Shown here piece by piece: positions 167-33,170 of a stretch of DNA of 64,000 bases. The DNA is from Oscillospiraceae bacterium (GTDB lineage: Bacteria > Bacillota > Clostridia > Oscillospirales > CAG-272): the NCBI GenBank assembly GCA_015063725.1, contig SVTP01000003.1:23194-87193 (forward strand). Reading direction: 5' to 3'. Numbering within the stretch: the stretch's first letter is position 1; each line of letters opens with the position of its first letter. The position numbers and the translations under genes were made by a program. Under the pieces are notes generated by a model that saw only the letters and a program-made list of their open reading frames with translations, was not told the origin of the DNA and did no database searches.

Positions 167-184
167 GTCCACAATTCTCCTTTC

Positions 185-2011: not shown

Positions 2012-2029
2012 AAGATCGATACCTCCAAA

Positions 2030-2404: not shown

Positions 2405-2427
2405 AGTTTTGATCCTTCCTTTTATGT

Positions 2428-17707: not shown

Positions 17708-18340
17708 CTATATAACAGAGCAAAAATCATTTCCAACAGTGACAAAAGCGTCATTTTCGCCCGAAAGCAAGCGGCAATAGTGAGCAATCTTTTGGGTCAG
17801 CTCCTCGTGTGTCAATTTTAAGAGATTGGTTTTTCTGTTTGAAATAGCAATCCACAAGAGATATTTTATTTGATTGGCGATCCATTCGGGAACCGTTGTG
17901 GGCTTTGTAAATTCTTCGCGTTTGCCGCCATAGCACTTTATGATCGACTGCCAAGTGTAGGCGTTTTCCCCTTTCAAGAATTTCTCGGGCATTCTTTCAC
18001 CATTGTGTGATAAAAAATCTCCGGCAATGGCAAGAATTGAGAGTTGTGACGCGGTAAGCATATCTTTTGAAATGCGATAAAAGGATTGATAACAAGCAAA
18101 ACCTTGACCTGAAAGCACTTCTATCAGCTGATCCATTTCTTCGTTGTTGTATCTCTCACTCGGCGCCGCGCGCAGTCTCGAAAGAGCAAGAGAAACAAAA
18201 ATGCTACTGATGTCAAGCTTGTCTTTTATCTGTTCGGTAGCGGATAAATACAGTTCATCGAGTTTTTTCTCAAAAACCTCTTGCGAAAGCTCACCCGCAC
18301 GATAGTGGGTGAGTAGTTCCAAAAGCATTTGTTTTATCAT
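17708..18340 (-). CDS. hypothetical protein (no recognisable domain)
   Basis: A 210-aa ORF with helical, non-repetitive composition, its own terminator and lower GC than its neighbours. Confidence 0.5.
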   Translation of the reverse strand: MIKQMLLELLTHYRAGELSQEVFEKKLDELYLSATEQIKDKLDISSIFVSLALSRLRAAPSERYNNEEMDQLIEVLSGQGFACYQSFYRISKDMLTASQLSILAIAGDFLSHNGERMPEKFLKGENAYTWQSIIKCYGGKREEFTKPTTVPEWIANQIKYLLWIAISNRKTNLLKLTHEELTQKIAHYCRLLSGENDAFVTVGNDFCSVI

Positions 18341-18473: not shown

Positions 18474-18500
18474 ATAAAAAAGAGCCCTTCGCAGGGCTCT
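18474..18500 (-). terminator. rho-independent terminator closing the Leu-T-box operon
   Basis: The minus-strand RNA reads AGAGCCCU-gcga-AGGGCUCU followed by UUUUUAUCUG, directly after the 18507 stop. Confidence 0.7.
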
Positions 18501-18506
18501 TGTGTT

Positions 18507-19319
18507 TTACATTTTATAAATTCTCACAGCATTCTCGGAAAGAATCATTGTGCGTTCTTCGTCGGTCAATTTGAGCTTCATAAAAGTTTCAAGCTCGACC
18601 TCGGGAGACCACATCGGAAAATCGCTACCGAACATGACGCGCTCCGCACCGTAGCGGTGAATCAGTCTCTCGCCAAGGGCGAGATCGTTCCCTGCAAACG
18701 GAAAGGTTGAGGAACAATCGACGTATAGGTTTGGAATATCGCAAAGCTCGCGCGAGGCATCGTCCCACACCGACCATCCGCCAAAATGCGCGCCAATGAC
18801 TGTCAATTTTGGAAACGCTTTGAGCACAGGCAAAAGGCGGTTGGGATTGGAATAATCGTAACGATGGTCACCTGTGTGCATCAGGACAGCAAGCCCTTCA
18901 CTCTCGCACAGTTCATACACGCGCATCATACGAGGGTCATCAATGGCAAACCCTTGAATATCAGGGTGAATTTTGATGCCGTGAAGTCCCAATGCTTTGA
19001 TCTCTGCAATAACGGCATCCTGATCTTCACAATCGGGATGCGCCGCGCCAAGTCCCGTAAAACGGTCGGGCGCCTTTGCCACCTCGGCGGCAATAAAGTG
19101 ATTGATGCTGGAGACCTGCTTGGGCGTGGTTGCCACAGATTGCACCACAAAACGGTCGATGCCAACGCGGTCGCCAATCTCCAAAAGCTCGGCGGCAACG
19201 CCACGGCAGGCGGCGTGGGTGGAATAAAACGCATCCGTCCCCGCAACCGCTCTGTCTACAATCTTTTCGGGATAGATATGACAATGCGCGTCAATAACCT
19301 GAAATTTGTTCTCTATCAT
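18507..19319 (-). CDS. amidohydrolase-2 (PF04909-like) TIM-barrel metal hydrolase/decarboxylase family protein
   Basis: 270 aa with an N-terminal IDAHCHIYP metal motif, HTGD and GSDFP. Confidence 0.75.
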   Translation of the reverse strand: MIENKFQVIDAHCHIYPEKIVDRAVAGTDAFYSTHAACRGVAAELLEIGDRVGIDRFVVQSVATTPKQVSSINHFIAAEVAKAPDRFTGLGAAHPDCEDQDAVIAEIKALGLHGIKIHPDIQGFAIDDPRMMRVYELCESEGLAVLMHTGDHRYDYSNPNRLLPVLKAFPKLTVIGAHFGGWSVWDDASRELCDIPNLYVDCSSTFPFAGNDLALGERLIHRYGAERVMFGSDFPMWSPEVELETFMKLKLTDEERTMILSENAVRIYKM

Positions 19320-19325
19320 TTTGTA

Positions 19326-21833
19326 TCATCCTTTTTTCAGTCCCAGCTTTTCAACGGCATCCTCGCGCATTTTGTACTTGAGGATCTTGCCTGCGGCATT
19401 CATTGGGAACTTGTCAACAAAATCAACGTATCTGGGCACCTTGTGGCGCGCCATACTTGCGGCTACAAAGTCTTTCATCTCCTGCTCGGTCATGCTCTCG
19501 CCATCTTTGAGGATGATACAAGCCATAATTTCCTCACCGTATTTTTCGTCGGGAACGCCGATGACCTGCACGTCGCTGACCTTGGGACAGGTGTAGATAA
19601 ATTCTTCGATCTCTTTGGGATAAATGTTTTCACCGCCGCGAATGATCATATCCTTGAGGCGCCCCGTAATGCGGTAGTTGCCGTCATCATCACGGCAAGC
19701 AAGGTCTCCTGTGTGGAGCCAACCGTCGGCATCAATGGCAGACGCGGTCGCCTGCGGCATTTTGTAATATCCCTTCATAATGTTGTATCCACGCGCCACA
19801 AACTCACCGTTGACACCGTTGGGACAGTCCTCGCCCGTTTCGGGATCGATGATCTTGCACTCAACGTTTGCAAAAACACTGCCTACGGTTTCGGTGCGGA
19901 CCTCCAACGAGTCATAATAGGAGCTCATCGTGCATCCGGGAGAGGCTTCGGTCTGACCGTAAACCGAGACGATCTCTTTCATATTCATAACCTCGGTTGC
20001 CTTTTTCATCAGGTCGGCAGGACAGTTGGAGCCTGCCATAATACCGATGCGCATATAGGAGAAATCGGTTGCGGCAAAGTCGGGATGCTCCATCATTGCA
20101 ATGAACATGGTGGGCACGCCGTTAAAGGCGGTGATGTGCTCGTTGTGCACGCAAGCCAGCGCGGGCTTGGGTGAAAAGTACGGCAGCGGCATCATGGTAG
20201 CGCCGTGCGTCATCGATGCGGTCATTGAAAGAACCATACCAAAGCAGTGGAACATGGGAACTTGGATCATCATGCGGTCAGCGGTGGAAAGGTCCATATG
20301 GTCGCCAATGTATTTGCCGTTGTTGACGACGTTGTAGTGTGTCAGCATAACGCCCTTGGGAAATCCAGTAGTGCCCGAGGTGTATTGCATGTTGCAAACG
20401 TCATCCTTATTGACAGCGGCTGCCATGCGGTAGACCTCGCTGACGGGTACCTGTGCGGCACGCTCAACGGCTTCATTCCAATCCATACATCCCTTTTGTC
20501 TGAAGCCAACGGTAATAACGTTGCGCAAAAACGGCAGGCGCTTGCTATGCAGAGCAGCGCCCGGCTTGAGCCTTGCCAATTCGGGGCAAAGCTCGGCAAT
20601 GATCTTGCCGTAGTGCGTATCCTTGGATCCCTCGGTCAAAATCAGGGTGTGTGTGTCGGATTGCTTGAGCAGATATTCTGCCTCGTGAATTTTATAAGCG
20701 GTATTGACAGTGACAAGCACGGCACCGAGCTTTACGGTTGCCCAAAAAGCAATGTACCATTGCGGCACGTTGGATGCCCAAACGGCGACATGGGAGCCTG
20801 CCTTGACGCCCAGCGCGATCAGGGAGCGCGCAAATTCGTCTACGTCATCGCGGAATTCGCTATACGTGCGCGTATAGTCGAGCGTGGTGTATTTGAAAGC
20901 GTATTGATCGGGAAATTCCTCGACCATGCGGTCAAGCACCTGCGAGAAGGTTGCATCGATCAAGAGATCCTTCTTCCAAACATACTTACCCGTATGTGCG
21001 CGGTTGTAATACAAGGTCTTTTCATTGCGTGAGGGATCGCTGAACTGGCTCATAAAGCCGACAAACTGCGAGAAGATGATCTCCATATCATCAAGCTCCT
21101 CACACCAGGCGGGATCCCAGACAAGGGAGAGGAAGCCGTCATAGTTGACGGAGCGCAAAGCAAGCATCATATCCTTGATAGGCAATTCTCCCTCACCAAG
21201 CAGACAGTATTCAATGCTATCCCCTGCTCTTTTTGCATCGTTGATATGCACGTGGCGAACGTACGCACCAAGATTTTTGATGATCTGCTCGGGACTCTCT
21301 CCTCCCTCAAAATATGCAGCGGAAAGATTCCAAAGAGATGCAAAGTAATCACTGGCAAAGCTATCCAACATCGCGCGTAGCTTTTCGGTCTTTGCAAAAA
21401 GTCCTGCCGTCTCCATCAAAAGCGAAATGCCGCGGCTCTCTGCCTCGGGCAGGAGTTCTGCAATCACTGCCTCTGTGTTGGTAAGTGCACTCTCCTCGTC
21501 CTCTGCGGCATTGGCGCGAATGCGAATGTTGGGGATATGCAAATTGGATGCGATCTCCATGCACTTGCGAATTTCGGCAATGCAGGCATCCTTTTCGTTC
21601 TTGTCAGACGGATTGCAGATGGCATCGATGCACGGAATGCGCAGCTTCTTTTCGTAGAGACGGCGAATGGTGGATGCGGCGGCGTAATTATAGAAGGCAC
21701 CGTCTTTATCAGCAAACAGGCTGTTTTTTATGTTGTGAAGCTCAATGCCCCCAAAGCCCATTGCCGTGGCGATGTCGCAAAAATCTTCAAAGGTGTGGCC
21801 GTGCCAGCCCTTTGTTGAAAAGGAAAATTTCAT
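19326..21833 (-). CDS. fusion protein: xylose-isomerase-like TIM barrel + AMP-forming acyl-CoA ligase
   Basis: 835 aa. The first roughly 270 aa resemble sugar-phosphate isomerase/epimerase TIM barrels (GFGGIELHN, HVHINDA). The remainder is an adenylate-forming ligase (YTSGTTGFPKGVMLTH, YGQTE, TGDLACRDDDGNYRITGRLKDMIIRGGENIYP). Confidence 0.8.
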   Translation of the reverse strand: MKFSFSTKGWHGHTFEDFCDIATAMGFGGIELHNIKNSLFADKDGAFYNYAAASTIRRLYEKKLRIPCIDAICNPSDKNEKDACIAEIRKCMEIASNLHIPNIRIRANAAEDEESALTNTEAVIAELLPEAESRGISLLMETAGLFAKTEKLRAMLDSFASDYFASLWNLSAAYFEGGESPEQIIKNLGAYVRHVHINDAKRAGDSIEYCLLGEGELPIKDMMLALRSVNYDGFLSLVWDPAWCEELDDMEIIFSQFVGFMSQFSDPSRNEKTLYYNRAHTGKYVWKKDLLIDATFSQVLDRMVEEFPDQYAFKYTTLDYTRTYSEFRDDVDEFARSLIALGVKAGSHVAVWASNVPQWYIAFWATVKLGAVLVTVNTAYKIHEAEYLLKQSDTHTLILTEGSKDTHYGKIIAELCPELARLKPGAALHSKRLPFLRNVITVGFRQKGCMDWNEAVERAAQVPVSEVYRMAAAVNKDDVCNMQYTSGTTGFPKGVMLTHYNVVNNGKYIGDHMDLSTADRMMIQVPMFHCFGMVLSMTASMTHGATMMPLPYFSPKPALACVHNEHITAFNGVPTMFIAMMEHPDFAATDFSYMRIGIMAGSNCPADLMKKATEVMNMKEIVSVYGQTEASPGCTMSSYYDSLEVRTETVGSVFANVECKIIDPETGEDCPNGVNGEFVARGYNIMKGYYKMPQATASAIDADGWLHTGDLACRDDDGNYRITGRLKDMIIRGGENIYPKEIEEFIYTCPKVSDVQVIGVPDEKYGEEIMACIILKDGESMTEQEMKDFVAASMARHKVPRYVDFVDKFPMNAAGKILKYKMREDAVEKLGLKKG

Positions 21834-23215
21834 TGCGCGGCCTCCTCGTAAACGATCTTGTTAACGGCGTTGATATAGGCACGGATGCCTGCACCGATGA
21901 TGTCGGTGGAAATACCGTTGCCCGAATAGAGCTTTCCGTCGGAGCGAAGCTTAACGAGCGCCGAGCCCATAGCTTCTGTACCCTCGGTAACGGCTTGGAT
22001 CTGGAAATCATCCAACTCATAACGGTAGCCGATGATCTGCTCGATGGCAGAAAATGCGGCATCAATTGGACCGTCGCCAATGCAAATGCCCGTCAGATCC
22101 TTTCCGTCCTTGCGCAGCGTGATCTGCGCACTTGTGGAAATGATATTGCCGCTGTTGACAACGTAATTGACAAGCTCATACGTGGGCGGAACCTGCAATG
22201 CCACGCTTGCAACGATGGCTTCCAGCTCCTTTGCCCCTACCTTCTTTTTGGCGGCTACGCGTAAAAATTCTTGATAAACAAGAGATTTATCTTCTTCGGA
22301 AAGATCGTACCCCAGCTTTGCAACGGCTGTAGCTACGGTGTCCTTATCGTCGTTGGCATCCAGATGGATGGGTTCGTCGTCGGGAGTGGCAGAAGTGATG
22401 CTTCCCTTTGCGCTCTTGACGTTATCCAGCACCCAGCCGATCTGCTTTACCGTACGATGAAGCTCGGTATAGCGGATATCGGAATAAAAGCCGTAGCGGT
22501 TGCCGCAATTTTTGACCATGGCGGCAAAGCTCTCAAGCGAAACACCTGCCTCGCCTACGGCTGTTTTAACACCCGATGCGCCTGCGCGGATCGCCATAAT
22601 AGCATTCGCACAAGCCATACTGTTTTGATTGGAACAACGAACGTTGACGGGAACGTTGATATTCTCGGCAATCTTCTTCACGAAATCTGCAAAATCATCG
22701 GGGAGCATTTCTCCTGCATCATCGCAAAGAGTAACCTCACAAGCACCTGCCGCAATAGCGGTGTTGATAACAGAAGCAAGGAATGCAGGCTCTGCACGGG
22801 AAGCATCCAAAGCGCAAAACTCAACCGAGGAGCACTGCTCTTTTGCAAAGGTGACGATCTTCTCTACCCATGCAATCATCTTATCGGGCTTTTTGTGGCA
22901 AACGTACTCCATGCTGACAGGAGAGGTGGGCAGCTCAATGCGAATGCGCGGATAGAGTGCGGTAGAAAGTGCCGCTTTTGCATTTTCGACGCTCTCAACC
23001 GTCATACCTGCCGCCACGGAGATGGTGCTCTTTTTAACAAAGGTCGAAATCGTTTTGATCAGCAGTGTATCAATGCGCACGTTTTGAATTTCGGGCAGCT
23101 CGATAATGTCCCCATCCAGCTTTTCAAGCTGACGGGCGATATCGATCTTTTCTTTAAAGCTAAAGGCATTGTCTGCTCGGCAAAGCGTAGCGTCTGCAAT
23201 TCTGATTCTTTTCAT
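21830..23215 (-). CDS. 2-isopropylmalate synthase homolog with degenerate catalytic motifs
   Basis: 461 aa with a DRE-TIM-like N-terminal half and a LeuA-type C-terminal regulatory domain (GDGPIDAAFSAIEQI, IQAVTEGTEAMG, GISTDIIGAGIRAY). The TLRDGEQ motif is replaced by TLCRADN, and HxH(D) by RCSNQ. Confidence 0.8.
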   Translation of the reverse strand: MKRIRIADATLCRADNAFSFKEKIDIARQLEKLDGDIIELPEIQNVRIDTLLIKTISTFVKKSTISVAAGMTVESVENAKAALSTALYPRIRIELPTSPVSMEYVCHKKPDKMIAWVEKIVTFAKEQCSSVEFCALDASRAEPAFLASVINTAIAAGACEVTLCDDAGEMLPDDFADFVKKIAENINVPVNVRCSNQNSMACANAIMAIRAGASGVKTAVGEAGVSLESFAAMVKNCGNRYGFYSDIRYTELHRTVKQIGWVLDNVKSAKGSITSATPDDEPIHLDANDDKDTVATAVAKLGYDLSEEDKSLVYQEFLRVAAKKKVGAKELEAIVASVALQVPPTYELVNYVVNSGNIISTSAQITLRKDGKDLTGICIGDGPIDAAFSAIEQIIGYRYELDDFQIQAVTEGTEAMGSALVKLRSDGKLYSGNGISTDIIGAGIRAYINAVNKIVYEEAAQ

Positions 23216-23255: not shown

Positions 23256-23530
23256 TCAAAAGTCCCCGAGACGGATGCATAATCCACCTCGGGGACGAAT
23301 GTTCTCATTCGCGGTACCACCCCGGTTACCGAACAAGTCGGTCACCTCAAAGGCTCAGGCAAGCCCTATGCTATGATAACGGTGCATGCCGTGACCGCTT
23401 ACTAAAGGTTCTGCGGTCCTGCTCCGGAACGAGACTTTCTTCTCTTTCGGTAACGGCTCACACCAAGCGCCGCCTCTCTGAAACCGATATGGGAGAAAAA
23501 ATAATTCCTTCAACGCATTTCAAAAAAATA
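23256..23530 (-). promoter_or_regulatory. T-box riboswitch leader, specifier read as CUC (Leu)
   Basis: On the minus strand: a K-turn (GUUGAA/GGA), an AGAGAG bulge, a CGGC-GCUUGGUGUGA-GCCG distal loop, the T-box core CCGGGGUGGUACCGCG (23310-23325) and a terminator GUCCCCGAG...CUCGGGGAC+UUUU (23258-23297). The specifier CUC-G lies at 23430-23433. Confidence 0.8.
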
Positions 23531-23536
23531 TGCTTT

Positions 23537-23565
23537 ATTATACCATTTACAATGGTATTTGTCAA
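23537..23565 (-). promoter_or_regulatory. sigma-A promoter of the Leu T-box unit
   Basis: TTGACA (23560-23565), a 17-nt spacer, then TATAAT (23537-23542). Confidence 0.6.
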
Positions 23566-23587: not shown

Positions 23588-24658
23588 TTATTTTTCAATG
23601 GGATATGTCCAGCCGTAAGTGTCCTCGATTTTGCCCCATTGAATGCCTGTCAAGGTATCGTACAGATGTTGGGTAACGGTACCGATCTTGCCACCGTTAA
23701 CGGGATATTGTACGCCCTTGTAGCAAAGCTCGCCAATGGGAGAGACAACTGCAGCAGTTCCGCAGCCCCATGCTTCCTCAAGTGTGCCATTTTCAAGCGC
23801 TTCGGAAAGCTCACCGATAGAGAGCAGACGCTCGCTGACCTTGTAGCCCTCGCCCTTGAGAACCTCGATGCAGGATTTGCGCGTGATACCGGGCAGAATG
23901 GAGCCGGTCAGAGCGGGCGTGACGATCTCGCCGTTGATCTTGAACATAACGTTCATAGCGCCGACTTCTTCGATATACTTGCGTTCCACACCGTCAAGCC
24001 ACAAAACCTGAGAGTATCCCTTTTGTGCGGCTCTCTCACCGGCTCTGTTACTTGCGGCATAGTTACCGCCGCATTTTGCATAACCTGTACCGCCTCTGAC
24101 AGCACGAACATCCTCGTCCTCGATCATGATGCGAACGGGATTGATGCCCTCTTTGTAGTAGCTTCCTACGGGAGAAGCGATGATAACAAAGGTTGCGTTG
24201 TGAACTGCGTGAACACCCAAGGTCTCATCGTTTCCAAACAGGAACGGACGCAGATAAAGCGAGGTTCCGGGAGCGGACGGTGTCCAGTCCTGCTCCATTT
24301 CCACAAAGGTCAAAAGAGCCTGAAGCATATCTTCCTCGGGCATTTGCGGCAGGCACAAACGCTCGGCAGAGTTGTTCATGCGGCGAATGTTCTCCAAAGG
24401 GCGGAAGAGCTGAACCTTGCCGTCGGCACGGCGGTAAGCTTTCAGTCCTTCAAAGATCTCGGAGCCATAGTGCAGAACGGTGGATGCAGGATGGAGAGAA
24501 ATGTTTGCAAAAGGCACGATGCGCGCATTGTGCCAACCCATCTCGTGGGAATAGTCCGCCATAAACATATGGTCGGTAAAGATCTTGCCAAAGCCAAGCG
24601 TAGAAGGATCCGGCTTTGCCTTGGGAGCATCACATTTTGTAATGGAAATATTGAGCAT
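23588..24658 (-). CDS. ilvE: branched-chain amino acid aminotransferase
   Basis: 356 aa with FGKIFTDHMF, ASTVLHYGSEIFEGLKAYR, the PLP-Lys context, GTGYAKCGGNYA and PGITRKS. Confidence 0.9.
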   Translation of the reverse strand: MLNISITKCDAPKAKPDPSTLGFGKIFTDHMFMADYSHEMGWHNARIVPFANISLHPASTVLHYGSEIFEGLKAYRRADGKVQLFRPLENIRRMNNSAERLCLPQMPEEDMLQALLTFVEMEQDWTPSAPGTSLYLRPFLFGNDETLGVHAVHNATFVIIASPVGSYYKEGINPVRIMIEDEDVRAVRGGTGYAKCGGNYAASNRAGERAAQKGYSQVLWLDGVERKYIEEVGAMNVMFKINGEIVTPALTGSILPGITRKSCIEVLKGEGYKVSERLLSIGELSEALENGTLEEAWGCGTAAVVSPIGELCYKGVQYPVNGGKIGTVTQHLYDTLTGIQWGKIEDTYGWTYPIEK

Positions 24659-24685: not shown

Positions 24686-25219
24686 TCAGTTTTCGGCACC
24701 GATGCGCATAGCGCCAAGATTGATCTCCAGCATGTCGGCACGCTTTGCGGAGATAACTTTTTTCAGTGCAGCGGTGATGTTTTCTTCGTTATAGTCGCCA
24801 ATTTCCTTGAGAACCTTGCCAACAATGATCATATTTGCCAGCGTGGGAGTTCCGTTATCGCTTGCCAGCTGCGTTGCAGGAATGTAGAATACCTGAACGT
24901 CATCGCGTGCGACCTTGCGCTCAATGAGCGTGGAGTCCGCAAAGATCATACCGCCGGGCACAACGGTCGATTCAAACTTATCAAGAGAAGGCAGATTCAT
25001 GGCGATCAGGATATCGGGATTGGAAACGATAGGAGAACCAACAGGCTCATCGCTCACGATGACACTGCAGCTTGCAGTACCGCCGCGCATTTCGGGACCG
25101 TAGGACGGAAGCCAGCTGACCTGTTTATCTTCCATCAAGCCCTTGTATGCAATAAATTTACCGGCAAACAGAATGCCCTGTCCGCCAAAGCCGGAAAACA
25201 GCATTTGCTTTGTACTCAT
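24686..25219 (-). CDS. 2-oxoacid:ferredoxin oxidoreductase, gamma subunit
   Basis: 177 aa with [14 protein letters not shown], typical of the gamma subunit. It has an ATGA overlap with the beta gene. Confidence 0.85.
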
Positions 25220-25974
25220 TTTGCCGATTCCTCCTTTGCACTTCTATCCTTATAGACACCCAAGGGATAGTACGGAATCATCTTTTCGTCAATCCATTGG
25301 AGAGCCTTCTGAGGTGTCATACCCCAGTTGGTGGGACAGGTGGAAAGGACCTCTACCAGAGAAAAGCCCTTGCCATCAATTTGGTTTTGGAATGCCTTTT
25401 TGATCGCCTTTTTGGCGTTATTTACGTTCTTTACATTGTTGACCGTTACGCGAGCAAGATACTCGGGGCCTTCCAATTCAGAGAGCATTTCGCACACGCG
25501 GATCGGGAAACCGCAGTGATTGGTGTCACGTCCGTAAGGAGAGGTCTGTGTTACCTGTCCGGGCAGCGACGTAGGTGCCATCTGACCGCCGGTCATGCCG
25601 TAAATTGCGTTGTTGATAAAGATAATGGTGATGTTTTCGTTTCTTGCAGCGGCATGAACAGTCTCCGCCATACCGATGGATGCGAGGTCACCGTCACCCT
25701 GATAGGTGAACACGATGTGCTCCTCGGGATTTGCGCGTTTTACACCGGTGGCAACTGCAGGGGCTCTGCCGTGTGCCGCCTCGATCATATCACAGTTAAA
25801 ATAGTTATAAGCCATAACCGAGCAACCAACGGGAGCAATACCGATGGTTCTGCCTTCGATACCAAGCTCGTCAATGACCTCGGCTACCAGACGGTGAATG
25901 ATGCCGTGGGTGCAGCCGGGACAATAGTGAAAAGGTGCATCGGTCAGGGCGTGGGGCTTTTTGAATACAACCAT
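25216..25974 (-). CDS. 2-oxoacid:ferredoxin oxidoreductase, beta (TPP-binding) subunit
   Basis: MVVFKKPHALTDAPFHYCPGCTHG... and GDGDLASIG (the TPP/Mg motif). I chose the ATG at 25974, which overlaps the alpha stop as TAATG. Confidence 0.85.
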   Translation of the reverse strand: MVVFKKPHALTDAPFHYCPGCTHGIIHRLVAEVIDELGIEGRTIGIAPVGCSVMAYNYFNCDMIEAAHGRAPAVATGVKRANPEEHIVFTYQGDGDLASIGMAETVHAAARNENITIIFINNAIYGMTGGQMAPTSLPGQVTQTSPYGRDTNHCGFPIRVCEMLSELEGPEYLARVTVNNVKNVNNAKKAIKKAFQNQIDGKGFSLVEVLSTCPTNWGMTPQKALQWIDEKMIPYYPLGVYKDRSAKEESAK

Positions 25975-27050
25975 TAGTTTTCTCCTCCTTTCGCGGCTTT
26001 TTTGATCGCTTCGAGTACTTGCTCGGGGGACGGAATCATACCGCCTGCACGATTGCAAAGCGTTACAGGCTTTTTGCATTCGGTTGCAAGGCGTACATCC
26101 TCAATCATCTGTCCCATAGAAAGCTCAACAGAAATAAAGCTGTTGACCTTATCCGCAGCGCGACGGAAAACTTCCTTCGGGAAGGGCCAGAGCGTGATGG
26201 GACGGATCATGCCGACCTTAATTCCCTGTTTTCTTGCCTCGTTGATGGCGTTTTTGGATACGCGAGCGGCAATACCGAAGGCGGCAATGCAGATCTCGGC
26301 ATCGTCCATCATGTATTCCTCGTACAGAACCTCGTTTTCCTCGATGTAGCGGTAACGCTCATAGCGAGCAAAGTTGAACTGCTCAAGCTCCTCGGGAACG
26401 AGAGAGAGCGAATTGACAATGTTGTGGGGACGTTGCATTTTGGTGCCTGTGATTGCCCAAGGCTTTTCGGGAGCGGGCTTGACAACAAGATCATCAAGTG
26501 CCACGGGCTCCATCATCTGTCCCATGGTGCCGTCTGCCAAAATCATAGCGGTCATGCGGTAGGTGTCGGCAAGCTCAAAGCCCTTAACGGTCAGCTCTGC
26601 CATCTCTTGAACAGATGCAGGTGCGAGAACGATCATACGGAAGTCACCGTGACCGCCTGCCTTGGTTGCTTGGAAATAGTCGGATTGGCTGGGTTGAATG
26701 CCGCCAAGACCGGGACCGCCGCGTTGAACGTTGACAACGAGTGCAGGCAGATCAGAGCCTGCAAGGTAAGAAAGACCTTCGCTCTTGAGTGCGATTCCGG
26801 GACTGGAGGAAGAGGTCATAACGCGGTATCCCGTAGATGCTACGCCATAAACCATATTGATAGCCGCGATCTCGCTTTCGGCTTGCAGGAAGGTACCGCC
26901 AATCTTGGGCATCTTTTTTGCCATATAAGCCGCGATCTCGGTTTGAGGGGTGATGGGATAGCCAAAATAATGTCTGCAGCCTGCGTGAATTGCAGCCTCG
27001 GCAATGGCTTCGTTGCCTTTCATCAATACTTTATCTGCCATTTTGATCAC
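25974..27050 (-). CDS. 2-oxoacid:ferredoxin oxidoreductase, alpha subunit
   Basis: 358 aa with MKGNEAIAEAAIHAGCRHYFGYPITPQTEI and QAESEIAAINM. Confidence 0.85.
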   Translation of the reverse strand: MIKMADKVLMKGNEAIAEAAIHAGCRHYFGYPITPQTEIAAYMAKKMPKIGGTFLQAESEIAAINMVYGVASTGYRVMTSSSSPGIALKSEGLSYLAGSDLPALVVNVQRGGPGLGGIQPSQSDYFQATKAGGHGDFRMIVLAPASVQEMAELTVKGFELADTYRMTAMILADGTMGQMMEPVALDDLVVKPAPEKPWAITGTKMQRPHNIVNSLSLVPEELEQFNFARYERYRYIEENEVLYEEYMMDDAEICIAAFGIAARVSKNAINEARKQGIKVGMIRPITLWPFPKEVFRRAADKVNSFISVELSMGQMIEDVRLATECKKPVTLCNRAGGMIPSPEQVLEAIKKAAKGGEN

Positions 27051-27253
27051 CTCTCAACAGTAATAATGCAGTCGGGACACATCGTTGCACAGAAAGCACA
27101 GCCGATGCAAGCATCGGGGTTTTCTGCCTCTACGGGGTGATGTCCCTTTTTGTTGATCTTATCGGGTGCCAGACGAAGCACCTTTTTGGGGCAAGCGTCT
27201 ACACACAGACCGCAGCCCTTGCATTTATCGGTCAAAAACGTTAATTTTGCCAT
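27047..27253 (-). CDS. 2-oxoacid:ferredoxin oxidoreductase, delta (2x[4Fe-4S] ferredoxin) subunit
   Basis: 68 aa, MAKLTFLTDKCKGCGLCVDACP...CIGCAFCATMCP. It has an AAGGAG RBS and its stop has an ATGA overlap with the alpha start. Confidence 0.8.
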   Translation of the reverse strand: MAKLTFLTDKCKGCGLCVDACPKKVLRLAPDKINKKGHHPVEAENPDACIGCAFCATMCPDCIITVER

Positions 27254-27287
27254 TTTTATGTACTCCTTTGGGTAGGATTTAAAACAG

Positions 27288-27950
27288 TTACTGAATCTTT
27301 TTTTGCAGTTCAAGTGGGAAAAGATCAGGAATCTTCCCTTCCAGCTCACACTGCAGTTTTTGGTCTGCCGTTGTCATAACGACGGGCAAGCCCGACATAG
27401 CCGCCACCTCGTTGGCATAGGATACCGACCGAAGCACGTCCTCGGCAGTGGTCTCCACTCCGAGATTGGAGTTGTTGACCAATGCGGTAAATCGCATACC
27501 GCACGCGGTCTCGATCTCACGCATTACCTCAAGGGTGGATATCGCATCGCGCGTTAAGGGGCGGTAGCAGTTGATCACCATCAGCATTTCGTAATCATTC
27601 TCCGCCAAAATAGCGGGAGCGAGTCTGCCAAGCACCAAAGCACCGCGGTCGTCACCGCCCACGTCGATGATGGCGCGCATGCGGCGGTCATCGGTCAGGG
27701 CGTAGAGGTCGGGCGGAAGTGCGGGAATATCGACGTTGCTGTTTGCATAGTTGGAGCAAATGAGTCGAATGCCCGCCTCTTCCAGCTCGGCGGCACTGTC
27801 CTTGGAACGAAAATAAGGATTGACGATGTCAAGGTCGGCAAGCGTTACGGTTGGGTATTCCCTCTTGATGGCTTGTGCCAGATTGACGGCAATGTTGGTT
27901 TTGCCGCTGCCGTAATGTCCGCACAAGAGCAAAACGCGTTTGTTCATCAT
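27288..27950 (-). CDS. P-loop NTPase of unknown role (MinD/CooC/GPN-like layout)
   Basis: 220 aa with a deviant Walker A (LLCGHYGSGKTN), LADLDIVNPYF and a Walker-B-like IIDVGGDD. Its start overlaps the ligase stop as ATGA. Confidence 0.6.
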   Translation of the reverse strand: MMNKRVLLLCGHYGSGKTNIAVNLAQAIKREYPTVTLADLDIVNPYFRSKDSAAELEEAGIRLICSNYANSNVDIPALPPDLYALTDDRRMRAIIDVGGDDRGALVLGRLAPAILAENDYEMLMVINCYRPLTRDAISTLEVMREIETACGMRFTALVNNSNLGVETTAEDVLRSVSYANEVAAMSGLPVVMTTADQKLQCELEGKIPDLFPLELQKKIQ

Positions 27951-30235
27951 AGCTTGTTCCTCTGAATTTTTCCGCTTGTTGTCTTGGGCAATTCATCGCA
28001 GAAGACCACAAGACGGGGGTATTTGTAGGGAGCGGTGTGCTCCTTAACGTAGGTTTGAATTTCTTTTTTGAGTTCCTCTGTGGGTTCTGTTCCCTTGGTA
28101 AGAACAATGGATGCCTTGACGATCTGTCCTCTTACCTCATCGGGAGCGGCGGAAACGCCGCACTCAAGAACGTAAGGCAGCTCCATAATAACGCTCTCAA
28201 TTTCAAAGGGACCAATGCGGTAGCCCGAGGACTTGATGACGTCATCGGCACGTCCTACGTACCAATAGAAGCCGTCCTCATCGCGCCAAGCAACGTCGCC
28301 GGTGTGGTAGTAACCGTCGTGCCAGACCTCTGCGGTCTTTTCCGCGTCGCGATAGTAGCCTGTAAAGAGTCCGCAAGGCGCTCCGTTTTTGACGTTGACA
28401 ACGATCTCACCGCTCTCACCAACAGAAACGGGATTGCCGTCGGCGTCCACAAGAGAAACATCATAAATCGGTGCGGGCTTACCCATAGAGCCGATCTTAT
28501 GCGGTGCACCGATCATATTACCGATGATCATGGTGCTCTCGGTCTGTCCAAAGCCTTCGAGAATTTGCAGTCCCGTTGCCTTTTCAAACTGGCGGTAGAC
28601 CTCGGGGTTGAGTGCTTCGCCCGCCGTTGTCATGTGCTTGACGGAAGAAAGATCGTATTTGGAAATGTCTTGCTTGATCATCATGCGCAGCATTGTGGGC
28701 GGCGCGCAGAAGGTTGTGATGTTGTATTTTGCAAACATCGGCAAGATCTCGGCAGCATCAAAGCGGTCAAAGTCGTAAACAAAGGTTGCCGCCTCACACA
28801 GCCACTGACCGTAGAGCTTTCCCCACATTGCCTTTGCCCAGCCCGTATCCGAGATGGTAAAATGTAAGCCGTTGGGATCGGCATTGTGCCAATATTTTGC
28901 GGTATGGAAGTGTCCGAGTGCGTACTTGTAATTGTGCGCCGCGATCTTGGGGTATCCTGTGGTTCCCGAAGTAAAGAACATCAGCATCAGATCGTCACCG
29001 CCGGGTGCATCCTCGCCTCGGTTGTAGTGCGAGCTGTAAAGCGTGTATTCTTCATCAAAGCTTCTCCAGCCCTCTCTTGTGCCGCCAACGATCAAGAAAT
29101 TCTTGAGCTCGGGACAGGTTTTTGCTGCGAGTTCGATTTGATGTGCGGTGTTGCCATCGGCAGTACAAAGAACCGTATTGATGCCTGCGGCTTGGAAGCG
29201 GTATTCAAAGTCATGCTCCTGCAACTGATTGGGAGCGGGGATGGCAATAGCACCAAGCTTGTTCAAGCCAAGCATAGCAAACCAGAACTGATAGTGGCGC
29301 TTGAGAACGAGCATGACGCGATCGCCCTTTTTGATGCCCAGCGACTTGAAATAGTTGGCACACTGTGCCGATGCTTTTTTGATATCCTTAAAGGTAAATC
29401 TTCGCTCGGTCTTATCCCCTGCAATGTGCAGCATTGCCAGCTTTTGCGGTTCTTTATCGGCAAGAGCATCCACAAGATCGAATGCAAAGTTAAAGTTTTC
29501 GATATTTTTAAATTGGATGGATGTAGGAGTTCCGTTTTCGTCTTCTTCAACGTCAATAAACTGTTGATAGATGCGCTCCTTGGTATCCTTTTGAATGGTG
29601 GCAGTTCCCCGCACGAGCTTTGCGGGCGTCAATTCGGGAATGGGCTCACCCGTAGGATTGAGCACGATCGCATAGAATTCGCAATCCTGACCGTCAACGG
29701 CAATCATACCGTGCGGAGCGCTACTGTCATAATAGATGCTGTCGCCTGCGCGCAGAACCTCTTTGTGCGAGCCGACCTGCACCATCAGGCTACCCGAGAT
29801 GACGATGTCGATCTCCTGACCTGCGTGTGTAGTCAGCTCGATATCCTTGTGTAGTGCTTCTTCGTTGTATTCACTGCGAACAAGCAAGGGCTCGGCAATT
29901 CGGTTTTGGAACGCGTATGCCAGGTTGTAGTAGGTCATGCCGTGTGCCTGCTCAATACGCTGTCCCGCGCCGTTTCGAGTGACCGTGTAGGACTTGAGCT
30001 TGGGGCTGACACCGTCGATGATGTCGGTAACGTTGACGCCAAAAGCCAATGCACAACGGTAGATAAACGCAAAGTTGAGGTCACTCTGCCCGTTTTCGCA
30101 CGCCAAGTATTCTTCAATCGTAACGTCGGTTTTTGCCGCCATCTCCTCGGGAGTATAGCGTGTAATTTCGCGCAACTCTCGAATACGCTCTGCCATCTCT
30201 CGGATCTTGAAATCCAATCCGCTCATTTGTTTCAT
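27947..30235 (-). CDS. HTH(XRE)-cupin fused to an AMP-forming short/medium-chain acyl-CoA synthetase (paralog B)
   Basis: 762 aa from the ATG at 30235, with a GGAGAG RBS. The N-terminus has an HTH (ITRYTPEEMAAKTDVTIEEY) and a cupin (HAGQEIDIVISG...HGM). The ligase part carries FFTSGTTGYPK, GFGQTE, TGDVAWRDEDGFYWYVGRADDVIKSSGYRIGPFE and SGKIQR. The ORF-track start at 30328 lies inside the T-box core and is rejected. Confidence 0.85.
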   Translation of the reverse strand: MKQMSGLDFKIREMAERIRELREITRYTPEEMAAKTDVTIEEYLACENGQSDLNFAFIYRCALAFGVNVTDIIDGVSPKLKSYTVTRNGAGQRIEQAHGMTYYNLAYAFQNRIAEPLLVRSEYNEEALHKDIELTTHAGQEIDIVISGSLMVQVGSHKEVLRAGDSIYYDSSAPHGMIAVDGQDCEFYAIVLNPTGEPIPELTPAKLVRGTATIQKDTKERIYQQFIDVEEDENGTPTSIQFKNIENFNFAFDLVDALADKEPQKLAMLHIAGDKTERRFTFKDIKKASAQCANYFKSLGIKKGDRVMLVLKRHYQFWFAMLGLNKLGAIAIPAPNQLQEHDFEYRFQAAGINTVLCTADGNTAHQIELAAKTCPELKNFLIVGGTREGWRSFDEEYTLYSSHYNRGEDAPGGDDLMLMFFTSGTTGYPKIAAHNYKYALGHFHTAKYWHNADPNGLHFTISDTGWAKAMWGKLYGQWLCEAATFVYDFDRFDAAEILPMFAKYNITTFCAPPTMLRMMIKQDISKYDLSSVKHMTTAGEALNPEVYRQFEKATGLQILEGFGQTESTMIIGNMIGAPHKIGSMGKPAPIYDVSLVDADGNPVSVGESGEIVVNVKNGAPCGLFTGYYRDAEKTAEVWHDGYYHTGDVAWRDEDGFYWYVGRADDVIKSSGYRIGPFEIESVIMELPYVLECGVSAAPDEVRGQIVKASIVLTKGTEPTEELKKEIQTYVKEHTAPYKYPRLVVFCDELPKTTSGKIQRNKL

Positions 30236-30263: not shown

Positions 30264-30540
30264 CAAAAATGCACTCGTCCCAAGCGAAAATAACCTTGAG
30301 ACGAGTGCAATAACACCCGCGGTACCACTCAAATTGCGACAAAGTCGCCACTCTTGGAGCCTGACAGCTCCTATGCATTAACGCAGCAATCACGGAAGGG
30401 TTCTACTGGAGCGTGCTCGTTCTTCCCTTCGGCTCGGAAGCTACAAATGCCGGTAAAGTCCAATGGCTTGCACCAAACGCCATCTCTCTGCAAAGACCTG
30501 TTTCCAACATCCTCTTCGTCAGTGCCTTTCTAAATTATAA
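30264..30540 (-). promoter_or_regulatory. T-box riboswitch leader, specifier read as GUA (Val)
   Basis: Stem I has a K-turn (CUGAC/CGA), a GAAG/CUUC lower helix, an AGAGAG bulge and an AUGGC-GUUUGGUGCAA-GCCAU distal loop. The T-box core is AAUUUGAGUGGUACCGCGGG (30316-30335) and the terminator is GCACUCGUC...GACGAGUGC+AUUUUUG (30264-30308). The specifier GUA-G lies at 30441-30444. Confidence 0.8.
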
Positions 30541-30611: not shown

Positions 30612-32879
30612 TCAAAGTTTATTTCTCTGAATCTTGCCGCTGATGGTTTTGGGCAGTTCATCGCGGAAAACAACCACGCGGGGGTATTTGTAGGGCGCGG
30701 TATGCTCTTTGACATAAGTTTGAATCTCTTTTTTGAGCTCTTCGGTGGGTTCTGTTCCCTTTGTAAGAACAATAGACGCCTTGACAATCTGTCCTCTGAC
30801 CTCGTCGGGCATAGCGGATACACCGCACTCGAGAACGTAAGGCAGCTCCATAATAACGCTTTCGATCTCAAAGGGACCGATGCGGTAGCCGGAGGACTTG
30901 ATAACGTCATCTACGCGACCAACGTACCAATAGAAACCGTCCTCATCGCGCCAAGCGGTGTCACCCGTATGATACATACCGTCATGCCAAACCTCGGCGG
31001 TCTTTTCTTCGTTCTTGTAGTATCCCGCAAAGAGTCCGCAAGGAACCTTTTTGTCGGTACGGACAACGATCTCACCAACCTCACCAACCGCTACGGGATT
31101 GCCGTCGGGATCAACGATATCAACGTCATAAAGCGGAATAGGCTTACCCATGGAGCCGAGCTTGTGCGTGCCGCCAATCAGATTTGCAATGGTGAGCGTC
31201 AGCTCGGTCTGCCCAAAGCCTTCCATGATCTGTAGTCCCGTTGCCTTTTCAAACTGACGGTAAACCTCGGGGTTGAGTGCTTCGCCCGCGGTGGTCATAT
31301 GCTTGATGGAAGAAAGATCGTATTTGGAGATGTCTTCCTTGATCATCATGCGCAGCATCGTGGGGGGCGCACAGAAGGTGGTGATATTGTATTTTGCAAA
31401 CATGGGAAGGATATCCGCTGCCGAGAAGCGGTCAAAGTCATAGGTAAAGACCGCGCCCTCACACAGCCACTGACCGTAGAGCTTGCCCCAAAGTGCCTTG
31501 CCCCATCCTGTTTCGGAAATGGTAAAGTGGAGACTGCCGTCACTGACGCCGTGCCAATGCTTGGCGGTAACAAAGTGACCGAGCGGATATTTGTAGGTAT
31601 GCGCTGCAATTTTGGGATACCCTGTGGTTCCCGATGTAAAGAACATCAACATCAGATCGTCACCACAGGGGGTGTCATCAGTACGATAGAAGTGCGTGCT
31701 GTAAAGACCGAATTCCTCGTCAAAGTCTCTCCAGCCGTCGCGCTTGCCGCCAACGAGAACCTTGGTGGTGAGCACCGGGCACTTCTGTTGTGCAAGGTCA
31801 ACCTGATGGGCAACATCACCGTCGGCTGTGCAGATGATCGCACTAACGTCGGCTGCTTCAAAGCGGTATTCAAAGTCATGCGCCTGCAGCTGATTGGTCG
31901 CGGGAATAACGATAGCACCCAGCTTGTGCAAGCCGAGAATTGCGAACCAGAACTGATAGTGGCGCTTGAGAACGAGCATGACACGGTCGCCCTTTTTGAT
32001 GCCCATGGATTTGAAATAGTTTGCGCACTGTGCCGAGGCGCGTTTCATATCGTTAAAGGTAAAGCGACGCTCGGTCTTATCGTTTGCAATGTGGATCATG
32101 GCAAGCTTGTCGGGTTCCTTTTGTGCAATGGCATCCACAACATCAAAGCCAAAGTTGAATTTGTCCTCATCGTGGAAATCGATGGACTGCAACAGACCGT
32201 TTTCGTCCTCGACTGTGGAGATAAAACGGTCGCAGACCAACTCTCTCTTTGGGGTACGCATGGGGATCAGTGTATCTCTGATCACGTCCTCTTTTTCGTT
32301 CTCACCGGGCAAAACAACTGCCACAAATAGGCAATCCTCGCCATCGATTGCGATCATACCGTGAGGGGTGGAGCTGTTGTAATAAATACTGTCACCCTCA
32401 CCGAGATACTCGACGTTATCGCCAACCTGCACCTTGAGCTTGCCTTTGAGTACCATGTCAAACTCCTGCCCGGAGTGCTTTGTCAGGTGGATGGGACGGT
32501 TTTGCAGATCGGGGTTATATTCGTAGCGAACCCAATAGGGCTCAGCCAGCTTTTTGCGGAACATGGGGGCTAAGTTGGAAATCTCAATGCCATCCTCTTT
32601 TGCCGTTTGCTGTCCCTGACCACGGCGCGTGACCGTGTAGGACGAAAGATGCGCACTGCGGCCTTCCAAAAGGTCGGTCATGCCAATGCCAAACGCCTGC
32701 GCACATTTATAAATAAAGGTAAACGGAAAATCCAACTCACCGCTTTCATACCTGCAGTACTCGGCAACCGATACCTCGGTCTTCTCTGCCATGGTTTCAA
32801 CGCTGAAATCAAAAATTTCACGCATTTCGCGAATTCGAAGCGCAACCTCCTGCAAAGTGTTAGATGATAAGTTCGACAT
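30612..32879 (-). CDS. HTH(XRE)-cupin fused to an AMP-forming short/medium-chain acyl-CoA synthetase (paralog A)
   Basis: 755 aa from the ATG at 32879, with an AGGAGG RBS. It has the same architecture as 27947-30235, and the ligase half is nearly identical (FFTSGTTGYPKIAAH, ILPMFAKYNITTFCAPPTMLRMMIK, GYRIGPFEIESVIMELPYVLECGVSA). The ORF-track start at 32963 lies inside the T-box and is rejected. Confidence 0.85.
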   Translation of the reverse strand: MSNLSSNTLQEVALRIREMREIFDFSVETMAEKTEVSVAEYCRYESGELDFPFTFIYKCAQAFGIGMTDLLEGRSAHLSSYTVTRRGQGQQTAKEDGIEISNLAPMFRKKLAEPYWVRYEYNPDLQNRPIHLTKHSGQEFDMVLKGKLKVQVGDNVEYLGEGDSIYYNSSTPHGMIAIDGEDCLFVAVVLPGENEKEDVIRDTLIPMRTPKRELVCDRFISTVEDENGLLQSIDFHDEDKFNFGFDVVDAIAQKEPDKLAMIHIANDKTERRFTFNDMKRASAQCANYFKSMGIKKGDRVMLVLKRHYQFWFAILGLHKLGAIVIPATNQLQAHDFEYRFEAADVSAIICTADGDVAHQVDLAQQKCPVLTTKVLVGGKRDGWRDFDEEFGLYSTHFYRTDDTPCGDDLMLMFFTSGTTGYPKIAAHTYKYPLGHFVTAKHWHGVSDGSLHFTISETGWGKALWGKLYGQWLCEGAVFTYDFDRFSAADILPMFAKYNITTFCAPPTMLRMMIKEDISKYDLSSIKHMTTAGEALNPEVYRQFEKATGLQIMEGFGQTELTLTIANLIGGTHKLGSMGKPIPLYDVDIVDPDGNPVAVGEVGEIVVRTDKKVPCGLFAGYYKNEEKTAEVWHDGMYHTGDTAWRDEDGFYWYVGRVDDVIKSSGYRIGPFEIESVIMELPYVLECGVSAMPDEVRGQIVKASIVLTKGTEPTEELKKEIQTYVKEHTAPYKYPRVVVFRDELPKTISGKIQRNKL

Positions 32880-32895: not shown

Positions 32896-33170
32896 TCAAA
32901 AAATAAAACACCCGTCTCAATTCTTTGAGACGGGTGTGAAAATACACTCGCGGTACCACTCAAATTGCGACATTGTCGCCACTCTTGGAATCAAACAATT
33001 CCTATGCCTTGACGCAGCAATCACGGGAAATTCTACTTGAACACAGTCTTTCGAACATCCGGCTCGGAAGTGATGGGTCTTGAGTAACTTTGTCATCGGT
33101 TCACACCAACACCGACTCTCTGCGGGCATCCTTATTCGACCTTCTTCGTCATCGCCTTTTTCAAATTACG
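32896..33170 (-). promoter_or_regulatory. T-box riboswitch leader, specifier read as AUC (Ile)
   Basis: Stem I reads GGC-GAUGAC-GAAG...CUUC-CGA-GCC, with an AGAGAG bulge and a GUCGGU-GUUGGUGUGA-ACCGAU distal loop. The T-box core is AAUUUGAGUGGUACCGCG (32948-32965) and the terminator is ACACCCGUCUC...GAGACGGGUGU+UUUAUUUUUU (32896-32937). The specifier AUC-A lies at 33071-33074. Confidence 0.8.

Follow-up and report, generated by a model that had tools for sequence, protein, structure and literature searches.

HisZ is a catalytically dead paralog of histidyl-tRNA synthetase that serves as the regulatory subunit of the short-form ATP phosphoribosyltransferase HisG, and for this pair both the complex and the feedback by histidine have been shown experimentally. 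MbcS is the methylbutyryl/isobutyryl-CoA synthetase of Staphylococcus aureus, and isotope labelling by Allison and Bryant in the 1960s is said to have revealed the incorporation of isovalerate into leucine in ruminococci. In 2-isopropylmalate synthase (LeuA), leucine occupies a hydrophobic pocket at the dimer interface of the regulatory domain, its carboxylate flanked by two helix N-termini (PMC11057210). Even when isolated, this domain (PF08502) senses branched-chain amino acids autonomously, and its specificity can be for isoleucine instead of leucine, as in citramalate synthase (CimA; PMC13381585). Here we describe a LeuA-like gene within a 64,000-nt stretch of DNA from an Oscillospiraceae bacterium (assembly GCA_015063725.1, contig SVTP01000003.1, forward-strand positions 23,194 to 87,193; hereafter ‘the window’), where it stands first behind a leucine T-box leader. 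Its product has very probably lost catalysis, has been retained by selection together with its effector domain and, on a reading to which we give about even chances, serves, without catalysing a reaction itself, as the leucine-sensing subunit of a ligase that activates isovalerate in a pathway from branched-chain acids to amino acids. The gene and its parts are arranged as follows:

21830..23215, minus strand: LeuA-like, very probably non-catalytic protein of 461 amino acids (open reading frame, with Pfam, NCBIfam, AlphaFold2 and Foldseek)
22451..23215, minus strand: degenerate DRE-TIM barrel, residues 1-255, with the Arg/Asp, Glu, HxH and GERAGN lost (alignments, fold match)
22238..22450, minus strand: shortened linker, residues 256-326, with subdomain I and its HxSGIHQDG deleted and a subdomain-II-like helix pair kept
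21833..22237, minus strand: LeuA allosteric/dimerisation domain, residues 327-461 (PF08502)

Pfam places HMGL-like (PF00682) on residues 14-254 (E 2e-33) and LeuA_dimer (PF08502) on residues 327-454 (E 1e-30; 106 bits as compared to a gathering threshold of 24.9), and the domain order—DRE-TIM barrel, linker, PF08502—is that of LeuA. Identity to LeuA amounts to 26–29%, with the protein being ~55 residues shorter. An earlier note on this DNA, made from the letters alone, had described an alignment with LeuA along the whole length, which is correct overall, though interrupted by three deletions. The top NCBIfam match is the LeuA equivalog NF002086, at 274.7 bits against a cutoff of 532; TIGR00973 follows with 243 bits against 599 and CimA with a mere 52 bits, located on the barrel. 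The protein thus stays below every LeuA equivalog cutoff of NCBIfam.

We compared its catalytic motifs by alignment to Escherichia coli LeuA (b0074) and to the LeuA catalytic domains 3RMJ, 3EWB and 3EEG of the Protein Data Bank (PDB). TLRDGEQ reads TLCRADN, with the Arg replaced by Cys and the metal-ligand Asp by Arg, and is followed by a five-residue deletion. The HxH ligands on strand 7 become Arg and Ser (SVHTHDD/HCHND to NVRCSNQ), and GIGERAGN is mostly deleted (five residues), leaving a GEAG remnant from which the Arg and Asn are lost. These are the changes that the earlier note had read in the translation when it declared the Asp and His metal ligands and the catalytic Arg missing, and each of them stands up in the alignments. 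Two further losses go beyond its list: the window protein has Leu in place of the catalytic Glu of VEFSxEDAxR, and a gap of ~45 residues relative to E. coli LeuA takes away accessory subdomain I with FAHSSGIHQDG, a deletion common to all family members.

A motif table and per-column counts over 106 family representatives extended this comparison beyond the window. RDGEQ, HxH, GERAGN and HxSGIHQDG are absent from all 106, and because the same substitutions and deletions recur in each of them, the losses are far beyond chance. No representative retains the His pair of HxH. The first His position holds E/Q/S/R/C/A/D/K, that of the metal-ligand Asp E/Q/N/K/S/D/R/L and that of the catalytic Glu E/L/I/V/Q, while the column of the GERAGN Glu is a gap in 105 of 106 sequences; the Arg position of RDGEQ is still occupied by Arg or Lys in 60. 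What survives across the family are structural LeuA motifs, namely DTTL, the D and R of EDAxR and the D and G of PDTxG. The earlier note had named catalytic residues supplied from shifted positions as the finding that would speak against it. We rejected this possibility, as the 106 representatives have no conserved His, Asp or Glu, either close to the lost ligands or elsewhere in the aligned barrel, that could stand in for the three metal ligands, and no alternative catalytic constellation is apparent.

A genuine, divergent 2-isopropylmalate (or citramalate/homocitrate) synthase that draws its catalytic residues from non-canonical positions would match the LeuA-like fold and domain order, the Arg or Lys kept at the RDGEQ position in 60 of 106 representatives and the name ‘2-isopropylmalate synthase’ that the Joint Genome Institute (JGI) gives to some members. 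It would also have to work with no conserved substitute for its metal ligands and with its catalytic subdomain deleted, from a gene whose product falls far below all NCBIfam equivalog cutoffs and which, in the mapped loci, never lies next to leuBCD and always next to an acyl-CoA ligase fusion. We consider such an enzyme very improbable and effectively excluded. Lacking the catalytic hallmarks that define LeuA, the family does not belong under the name isopropylmalate synthase. No canonical leuA was found within the 64-kb window, a statement that does not extend to the whole genome.

How widespread is the family, and is it maintained? More than 120 full-length relatives, 64–92% identical, came up in a word-indexed search, all of them from metagenome-assembled genomes of Clostridia/Oscillospiraceae and annotated either as ‘hypothetical protein’ (NCBI) or as ‘2-isopropylmalate synthase’ (JGI). 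An exhaustive search of representatives yielded more than 110 clusters at the 50% identity level, comprising proteins of 453–489 amino acids and 38–63% identity, with canonical LeuA of 500–516 amino acids ranking only below the LeuA-like clusters, at ~222 bits. A genome scan with one genome per species gave at least 577 loci, the best 80 of which were retrieved. Hosts of the loci belong mostly to the Acutalibacteraceae, Oscillospiraceae, Ruminococcus, Lachnospiraceae and unclassified Clostridia, and stem from the guts of cattle, goat, sheep, deer, buffalo and other animals. Our survey of the literature on isopropylmalate synthase pseudoenzymes, isovalerate carboxylation, T-boxes and the LeuA regulatory domain returned no description of this family.

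In 82 loci, with identities of 47–90%, the gene retains an uninterrupted reading frame. Mean column entropy among the 106 representatives is 2.32 bits in the barrel, highest in the linker (2.67 bits) and 1.37 bits in the allosteric domain. Relative to the closest genomic relative (locus L004; 90% amino acid identity), the ratio of non-synonymous to synonymous substitution rates (dN/dS) is 0.056 for the barrel, 0.082 for the linker and 0.010 for the allosteric domain, values that are approximate given a dS of ~1.3, near saturation. The whole protein is kept by selection, with the old active site unconstrained and the effector domain the most constrained part. The pseudoenzyme postulated by the earlier note is therefore a maintained one: its catalytic residues are lost, yet purifying selection is retained, with dN/dS well below 1 in all three regions. 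A decaying pseudogene or annotation artefact, as the loss of all catalytic motifs and the ‘hypothetical protein’ labels might suggest, is at odds with these ratios and with the intact frames, and likewise with a confident structural model and a conserved operon position and translational coupling (see below). We regard this explanation as the least probable of all and, like the genuine synthase, effectively excluded.

The representative search also contained ~500-amino-acid LeuA-like proteins with partly degraded catalytic motifs (P0250, P0261, P0265 and P0266). P0250, for instance, reads TLCEGER and HSQ, retains GIGERAGN intact and has lost the HQDG motif. The one genomic context retrieved for these forms (L084:2005-3516) is without the ligase fusion, and they may mark separate instances of LeuA degeneration or intermediates in it.

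Turning to the effector domain, GDGPIDA and GNGISTDI (GxGxSTDI), the counterparts of GNGPVDA and GVGLATDI in LeuA, are nearly invariant in the family. The earlier note had regarded the C-terminal regulatory domain as preserved, and the strings it quoted are indeed present, match the LeuA motifs and lie within the strong PF08502 hit. An AlphaFold2 (AF2) model built on a 38-sequence family alignment reached a mean pLDDT (predicted local distance difference test) of 88.3, with only residues 269-280 in the linker predicted as disordered (pLDDT <50). Foldseek superimposed the barrel on 3EWB with a template-modelling (TM) score of 0.92 and a root-mean-square deviation (rmsd) of 1.7 Å, and on 3RMJ with 1.8 Å, and aligned the full chain to Mycobacterium tuberculosis LeuA (MtLeuA; 1SR9, 3FIG, 3HPS) at E ~1e-22; further fold matches were 1nvm, 4jn6 and 4lrs. 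For PF08502, AF2 predicts a duplicated beta-beta-beta-alpha fold, made up of strands 347-354, 361-369 and 372-380 and helix 383-395 in the first half, and of strands 400-408, 417-425 and 428-436 and helix 439-460 in the second. Both helices start right after the Gly-rich motifs.

A profile of the C-terminal domain matched the regulatory domain of CimA (3F6G, E 4e-7) as well as MtLeuA 529-573 and 616-641, with G380-F388 aligning to MtLeuA G531-F538 and G432-A442 to MtLeuA 620-630; the GDGP motif thereby aligns with the leucine-site loop G531-A536. The structure paper by Koon et al. from 2004 reportedly names L535, V551, Y554, A565 and I627 as leucine-pocket residues. We take these to correspond to I384, L401, F404, A415 and I439 of the LeuA-like protein, all of them conserved as hydrophobic, and its invariant G417 presumably matches E. 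coli G462, where the substitution G462D confers feedback resistance. Because the top NCBIfam matches are LeuA equivalogs and CimA scores its 52 bits on the barrel, the allosteric domain appears to descend from bacterial LeuA, not CimA, and the protein would be expected to bind leucine rather than isoleucine, valine or a keto acid.

The LeuA-like gene opens a three-gene operon with the following elements, in the order of transcription:

23537..23565, minus strand: sigma-70-type promoter, TTGACA-17-TATAAT, TG-extended, placed between the ilvE stop and the T-box (12/12 consensus match)
23288..23522, minus strand: T-box leader with a CUC (Leu) specifier (Rfam RF00230, 122.5 bits vs gathering threshold 93)
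23262..23296, minus strand: intrinsic terminator hairpin of the T-box, overlapping the 3' end of the T-box model (15-bp stem with 9 GC pairs, then the T-run TTTTGATTT)
19326..21833, minus strand: fusion protein of 835 amino acids (Pfam AP_endonuc_2, AMP-binding and AMP-binding_C)
20979-21833, minus strand: N-terminal xylose-isomerase-like TIM barrel of the fusion (AP_endonuc_2)
19326-20978, minus strand: acyl-CoA ligase part of the fusion (AMP-forming), proposed isovalerate-CoA ligase (AMP-binding)
18507..19319, minus strand: Amidohydro_2 protein of 270 amino acids, third gene of the operon (PF04909, E 4e-38)
18480..18501, minus strand: intrinsic terminator closing the operon (9-bp stem, then TTTTTATCT)

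The leucine T-box proposed upstream of the gene is real, as RF00230 scores above gathering and every orthologous leader carries a Leu codon as its specifier. CUC was confirmed by alignment to 64 such leaders, in three of which the codon is CUG, and this synonymous switch confirms both the specifier frame and the leucine identity. A T-box lies within 250 nt upstream of the LeuA-like gene in 64 of 78 loci. The remaining 14 (such as L044, L045, L047, L053, L055, L056, L059, L062 and L070) have no T-box of their own within that distance, implying that separate Leu control is not universal. At most of them, the gene directly follows ilvE or the gamma-subunit gene of a VorB-type 2-oxoacid:ferredoxin oxidoreductase (VOR), inside a larger operon.

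The two proteins are tied together at the level of translation and of gene order, much as the earlier note had envisaged. The ATGA at 21830-21833, in which the stop of the LeuA-like gene overlaps the start of the fusion, was confirmed in the sequence. With loci mapped by tblastn and denominators referring to those with enough sequence, the TIM-barrel domain of the fusion lies directly downstream of the LeuA-like gene in 76 of 76 loci, at a distance of −4 to +6 nt between stop and ATG in 66 of 75, and is followed by the ligase domain in 64 of 64; an Amidohydro_2 gene comes after the fusion in 46 of 58. As to the overlap itself, we observed that TAC GAG GAG GCC (21833-21850, minus strand) codes for the C-terminal VYEE(A), which hardly varies in the family. 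The last LeuA-like codons embed GAGGAGG, the Shine-Dalgarno sequence of the overlapping ligase gene, and are therefore probably under dual constraint.

Identity across loci is 73–97% for the ligase domain, 47–90% for the LeuA-like protein, 37–91% for the fused TIM barrel and 46–86% for the amidohydrolase. That the ligase is the most conserved is what one would expect if it did the enzymatic work and the others had accessory roles. As a separate observation, the ligase domain retains its 73–97% (L002-L083) in hosts whose neighbouring proteins are 40–65% identical, and the VOR subunits and IlvE show the same high conservation. Very strong constraint may be responsible, or else horizontal spread of the cluster among gut Clostridia. 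In the fused TIM barrel, E141 and H196, both putative metal ligands, are conserved; the remaining two ligand positions hold Asn (or His) and Val/Ile in the clade of the window, and Asp and Glu in distant members, so this may be a second barrel on its way to losing a metal site. Homology searching for stand-alone relatives of this barrel returned none, only fragments of the same fusion, and its sequence matches in the PDB are weak (Art22, 8z1i, E 1e-4; MJ1311). The closest PDB entry to the Amidohydro_2 protein is the uncharacterised BB4693 (3irs).

Synteny and coupling would fit equally well if the LeuA-like protein were a non-catalytic scaffold, or a sensor for another ligand—2-ketoisocaproate, isovaleryl-CoA, isoleucine or valine. 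As a scaffold, it could be an assembly subunit for folding of the ligase or for channelling to VOR, with no role in feedback; DmpG-type aldolases of the DRE-TIM class, represented among the fold matches by 1nvm, 4jn6 and 4lrs, channel with CoA-dependent partners. For a different ligand, one can point to the varying effector of PF08502, which is isoleucine in CimA. The descent of the domain from bacterial LeuA rather than CimA argues the other way, as does the exclusive use of Leu codons in the T-box, which makes leucine the most economical effector, and the extreme conservation of the effector-site motifs would be hard to explain in a pure scaffold. We therefore rank this alternative as possible, at clearly lower probability than a leucine sensor.

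The operon forms the end of a 15-kb cluster, the upstream genes of which lie on the same strand:

23588..24658, minus strand: IlvE branched-chain aminotransferase (NCBIfam PRK13357, 473 bits vs cutoff 307)
24686..27349, minus strand: 2-oxoacid:ferredoxin oxidoreductase gamma, beta, alpha (VorB-type) and delta ferredoxin subunits (Pfam POR, TPP_enzyme_C, POR_N/PFOR_II and Fer4)
27288-27950, minus strand: CbiA-like P-loop gene, 220 amino acids (weak CbiA/MinD-type Pfam match, no NCBIfam family)
27947..30235, minus strand: MbcS-like helix-turn-helix (HTH)-cupin-acyl-CoA ligase, 762 amino acids, behind the Val T-box (Pfam HTH_19, Cupin_2 and AMP-binding)
30294..30531, minus strand: T-box leader, GUA (Val) (RF00230, 85.8 bits, E 2e-18; just under gathering threshold 93)
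30612..32879, minus strand: second MbcS-like HTH-cupin-acyl-CoA ligase, 755 amino acids, behind the Ile T-box (Pfam)
32923..33161, minus strand: T-box leader, AUC (Ile) (RF00230, 89.2 bits, E 2e-19; just under gathering threshold 93)

The cluster thus contains three acyl-CoA ligases, with one T-box for each branched-chain amino acid, and a shared oxidoreductase and aminotransferase. The alpha subunit of the oxidoreductase is assigned to NCBIfam VorB (547 bits vs cutoff 399). The Val and Ile specifiers were read from the T-box alignment and recur upstream of orthologous ligases in other loci (GUA in L003, L060 and L075; AUC in L003, L060, L074, L075 and L082). Both HTH-cupin ligases match NCBIfam MbcS (435 bits for the 762- and 439 bits for the 755-amino-acid protein), below its equivalog cutoff of 850. 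We re-read their starts as the Met codons at 30235 and 32879, the mechanically called reading frames having begun inside the T-boxes. Their N-terminal HTH-cupin module evolves faster than the ligase part (44–90% vs 69–96% identity), and we can only speculate that this XRE-type module has a regulatory role for the Val and Ile branches analogous to that of the LeuA-like protein. In most loci the CbiA-like gene keeps its place between the VOR genes and the Val-controlled ligase, and its product may be a maturation factor of the oxidoreductase.

This gene set is the one expected for making isoleucine, valine and leucine from 2-methylbutyrate, isobutyrate and isovalerate via reductive carboxylation, which makes the Leu-controlled ligase most simply an isovalerate-activating enzyme; judging from this gene context, isovalerate would be the substrate of the ligase in the LeuA-like operon. 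The earlier note had suggested a regulatory or scaffolding subunit for the downstream enzyme, and all elements of that proposal open to computation were borne out; the wider setting (VOR, IlvE and the Val and Ile T-boxes), which the note had not seen, supplies its physiological rationale. In the mechanism we propose, uncharged tRNA-Leu would cause the CUC T-box to read through and switch the Leu operon on, and translational coupling would yield LeuA-like protein and ligase fusion in a fixed ratio. The ligase would convert isovalerate to isovaleryl-CoA in the first committed step, at the expense of ATP and CoA; the VorB-type ferredoxin oxidoreductase would turn isovaleryl-CoA into 2-ketoisocaproate by reductive carboxylation, and IlvE would transaminate the latter to leucine. 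The LeuA-like protein would dimerise via PF08502, bind leucine in its inherited pocket and, through a contact with the ligase that is perhaps barrel to barrel, impose rapid end-product feedback on the ligase step. Such protein-level feedback would be added to T-box control, as with genuine LeuA in the canonical pathway. The mechanism implies a physical complex of the LeuA-like protein with the ligase, in which the former might inhibit, activate or scaffold its partner. The broader evolutionary scenario, in which an alternative leucine pathway recruited a LeuA-derived pseudoenzyme specifically to sense leucine for feedback, and the allosteric module of the canonical gatekeeper enzyme was thereby moved, as a subunit of its own, to the gatekeeper of another pathway, we put forward somewhat more tentatively than the sensor function itself.

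Several observations weigh against a leucine-sensing subunit of an isovalerate ligase. A VorB-type oxidoreductase was found in the flanks of 31 and IlvE in those of 34 of 66 loci, that is, within the examined flanks in only about half of the cases. The top NCBIfam match of the fusion is PRK12583, at 670 bits versus a cutoff of 832 (subfamily level), and the PDB neighbours of its ligase are generic fatty-acyl-, feruloyl- and malonyl-CoA ligases. The identity of the ligand rests on the LeuA-type ancestry and the Leu T-box, given that PF08502 can be Ile-specific. The sensor model leaves the ligase-fused TIM barrel and the Amidohydro_2 gene without a role. Finally, the barrel of the LeuA-like protein keeps D8, T10, E103, Y104, K109, D137, R140 and D165, and these polar residues, together with the strong purifying selection, make a binding or even a catalytic role of the barrel possible.

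The last two points lead to a neofunctionalised enzyme with a new site in the barrel, either metal-independent or differently liganded. Such a protein could act with the fused TIM barrel and the Amidohydro_2 protein, making the acid substrate of the ligase or a leucine precursor, with the allosteric domain regulating the new activity in cis. The barrel is confidently predicted and has the dN/dS of 0.056 reported above; all of the listed residues except Y104 are polar, (near-)invariant positions at strand ends; five Cys residues conserved in the clade (C12, C106, C128, C194, C237) might contribute to a site; and the AP_endonuc_2 and Amidohydro_2 enzyme folds, left over by the regulatory model, would find employment. 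Yet the conserved polar residues all belong to ancestral LeuA motifs (DTTL, MEYKLK, EDAxR, PDTxG), the positions that contact metal and substrate in LeuA are highly variable among the 106 representatives, the clade-specific Cys are not conserved family-wide, and the protein has lost the subdomain with which LeuA closes its active site and contributes the catalytic His. We hence deem a new enzymatic function unlikely. A Cys-based metal or Fe-S site was considered separately. The Cys residues conserved in the clade of the window are C12, C106, C128, C134, C164, C194 and C237, among which C194 sits between the two former His positions and should, on a beta-strand, face away from the old site. This candidate was rejected, as conservation of these Cys does not extend from the clade to the wider family.

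Elsewhere in the window, an ECF-type (extracytoplasmic function) sigma factor gene (195 amino acids) overlaps a DUF4367 gene (258 amino acids) at 16167-17511 on the minus strand, just downstream of the Leu operon, and the two products are a probable sigma/anti-sigma pair. A 210-amino-acid protein without Pfam match is encoded at 17708-18340. Near the start of the window, an 839-amino-acid open reading frame without Pfam match (80-2599, plus strand) overlaps one of 608 amino acids on the opposite strand (185-2011, minus strand).

If the sensor function holds, the LeuA-like protein would clearly exemplify, for bacteria, how a biosynthetic enzyme can become a separate allosteric sensor serving another enzyme, and a large unnamed family (more than 110 clusters, at least 577 loci) would gain a function. 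The naming issue has consequences of its own: the mis-annotation of the family as LeuA is likely widespread, and organisms that carry only the LeuA-like gene would then be wrongly scored as LeuA-positive in metabolic reconstructions. The cluster with its three T-boxes offers a genetic model for the conversion of isovalerate, isobutyrate and 2-methylbutyrate to leucine, valine and isoleucine in fibre-degrading rumen Clostridia, with relevance to isoacid feed supplementation; if our interpretation is correct, it would provide a genetic and regulatory basis for the long-known requirement of rumen and gut Clostridia for branched-chain volatile fatty acids (‘isoacids’). For biosensor design, the LeuA-like protein might offer a leucine-binding module of natural origin.

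How, then, does the locus relate to described systems? The literature we surveyed contained neither a branched-chain acid route with a LeuA-derived subunit or a TIM-barrel-fused PRK12583-type ligase nor three ligases placed under individual T-boxes for Ile, Val and Leu, and we know of no description of a route that unites a LeuA-derived subunit, a TIM-fused ligase and three T-boxes. The route through MbcS (known from S. aureus), VOR (VorABC) and IlvE is nonetheless recognisable in the MbcS-like ligases, the VorB-type oxidoreductase and the IlvE of the window, and the carriers of the family, being rumen and gut Clostridia, resemble the ruminococci reported to incorporate isovalerate into leucine. 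With LeuA itself (E. coli b0074, Neisseria meningitidis 3RMJ, Listeria monocytogenes 3EWB), the LeuA-like protein shares the barrel fold to within 1.7–1.8 Å, the effector motifs GxGPxDA and GxGxxTDI and an expression governed by leucine availability; M. tuberculosis LeuA (1SR9/3FIG), the reference for the full architecture, has the same domain order. It differs from LeuA in lacking the RDGEQ Arg/Asp, the catalytic Glu, HxH, GERAGN and subdomain I, and in its linkage to a ligase fusion, never to leuBCD. CimA (3F6G/3F6H) and IlvH/IlvN likewise employ a small branched-chain-amino-acid-binding domain or subunit for feedback inhibition. In CimA, however, PF08502 is Ile-specific and fused to an active barrel, whereas the LeuA-like barrel appears dead, and IlvH is an ACT-fold protein without a dead catalytic domain. 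The only close conceptual precedent known to us is HisZ, in that a dead paralog of an amino-acid-recognising enzyme would again be the subunit through which a pathway's first enzyme senses the end product. Fold and pathway are unrelated, and complex and feedback, which are established for HisZ, are proposed here for the LeuA-like protein, a sensor that would have been taken from the canonical leucine pathway to control an alternative one.

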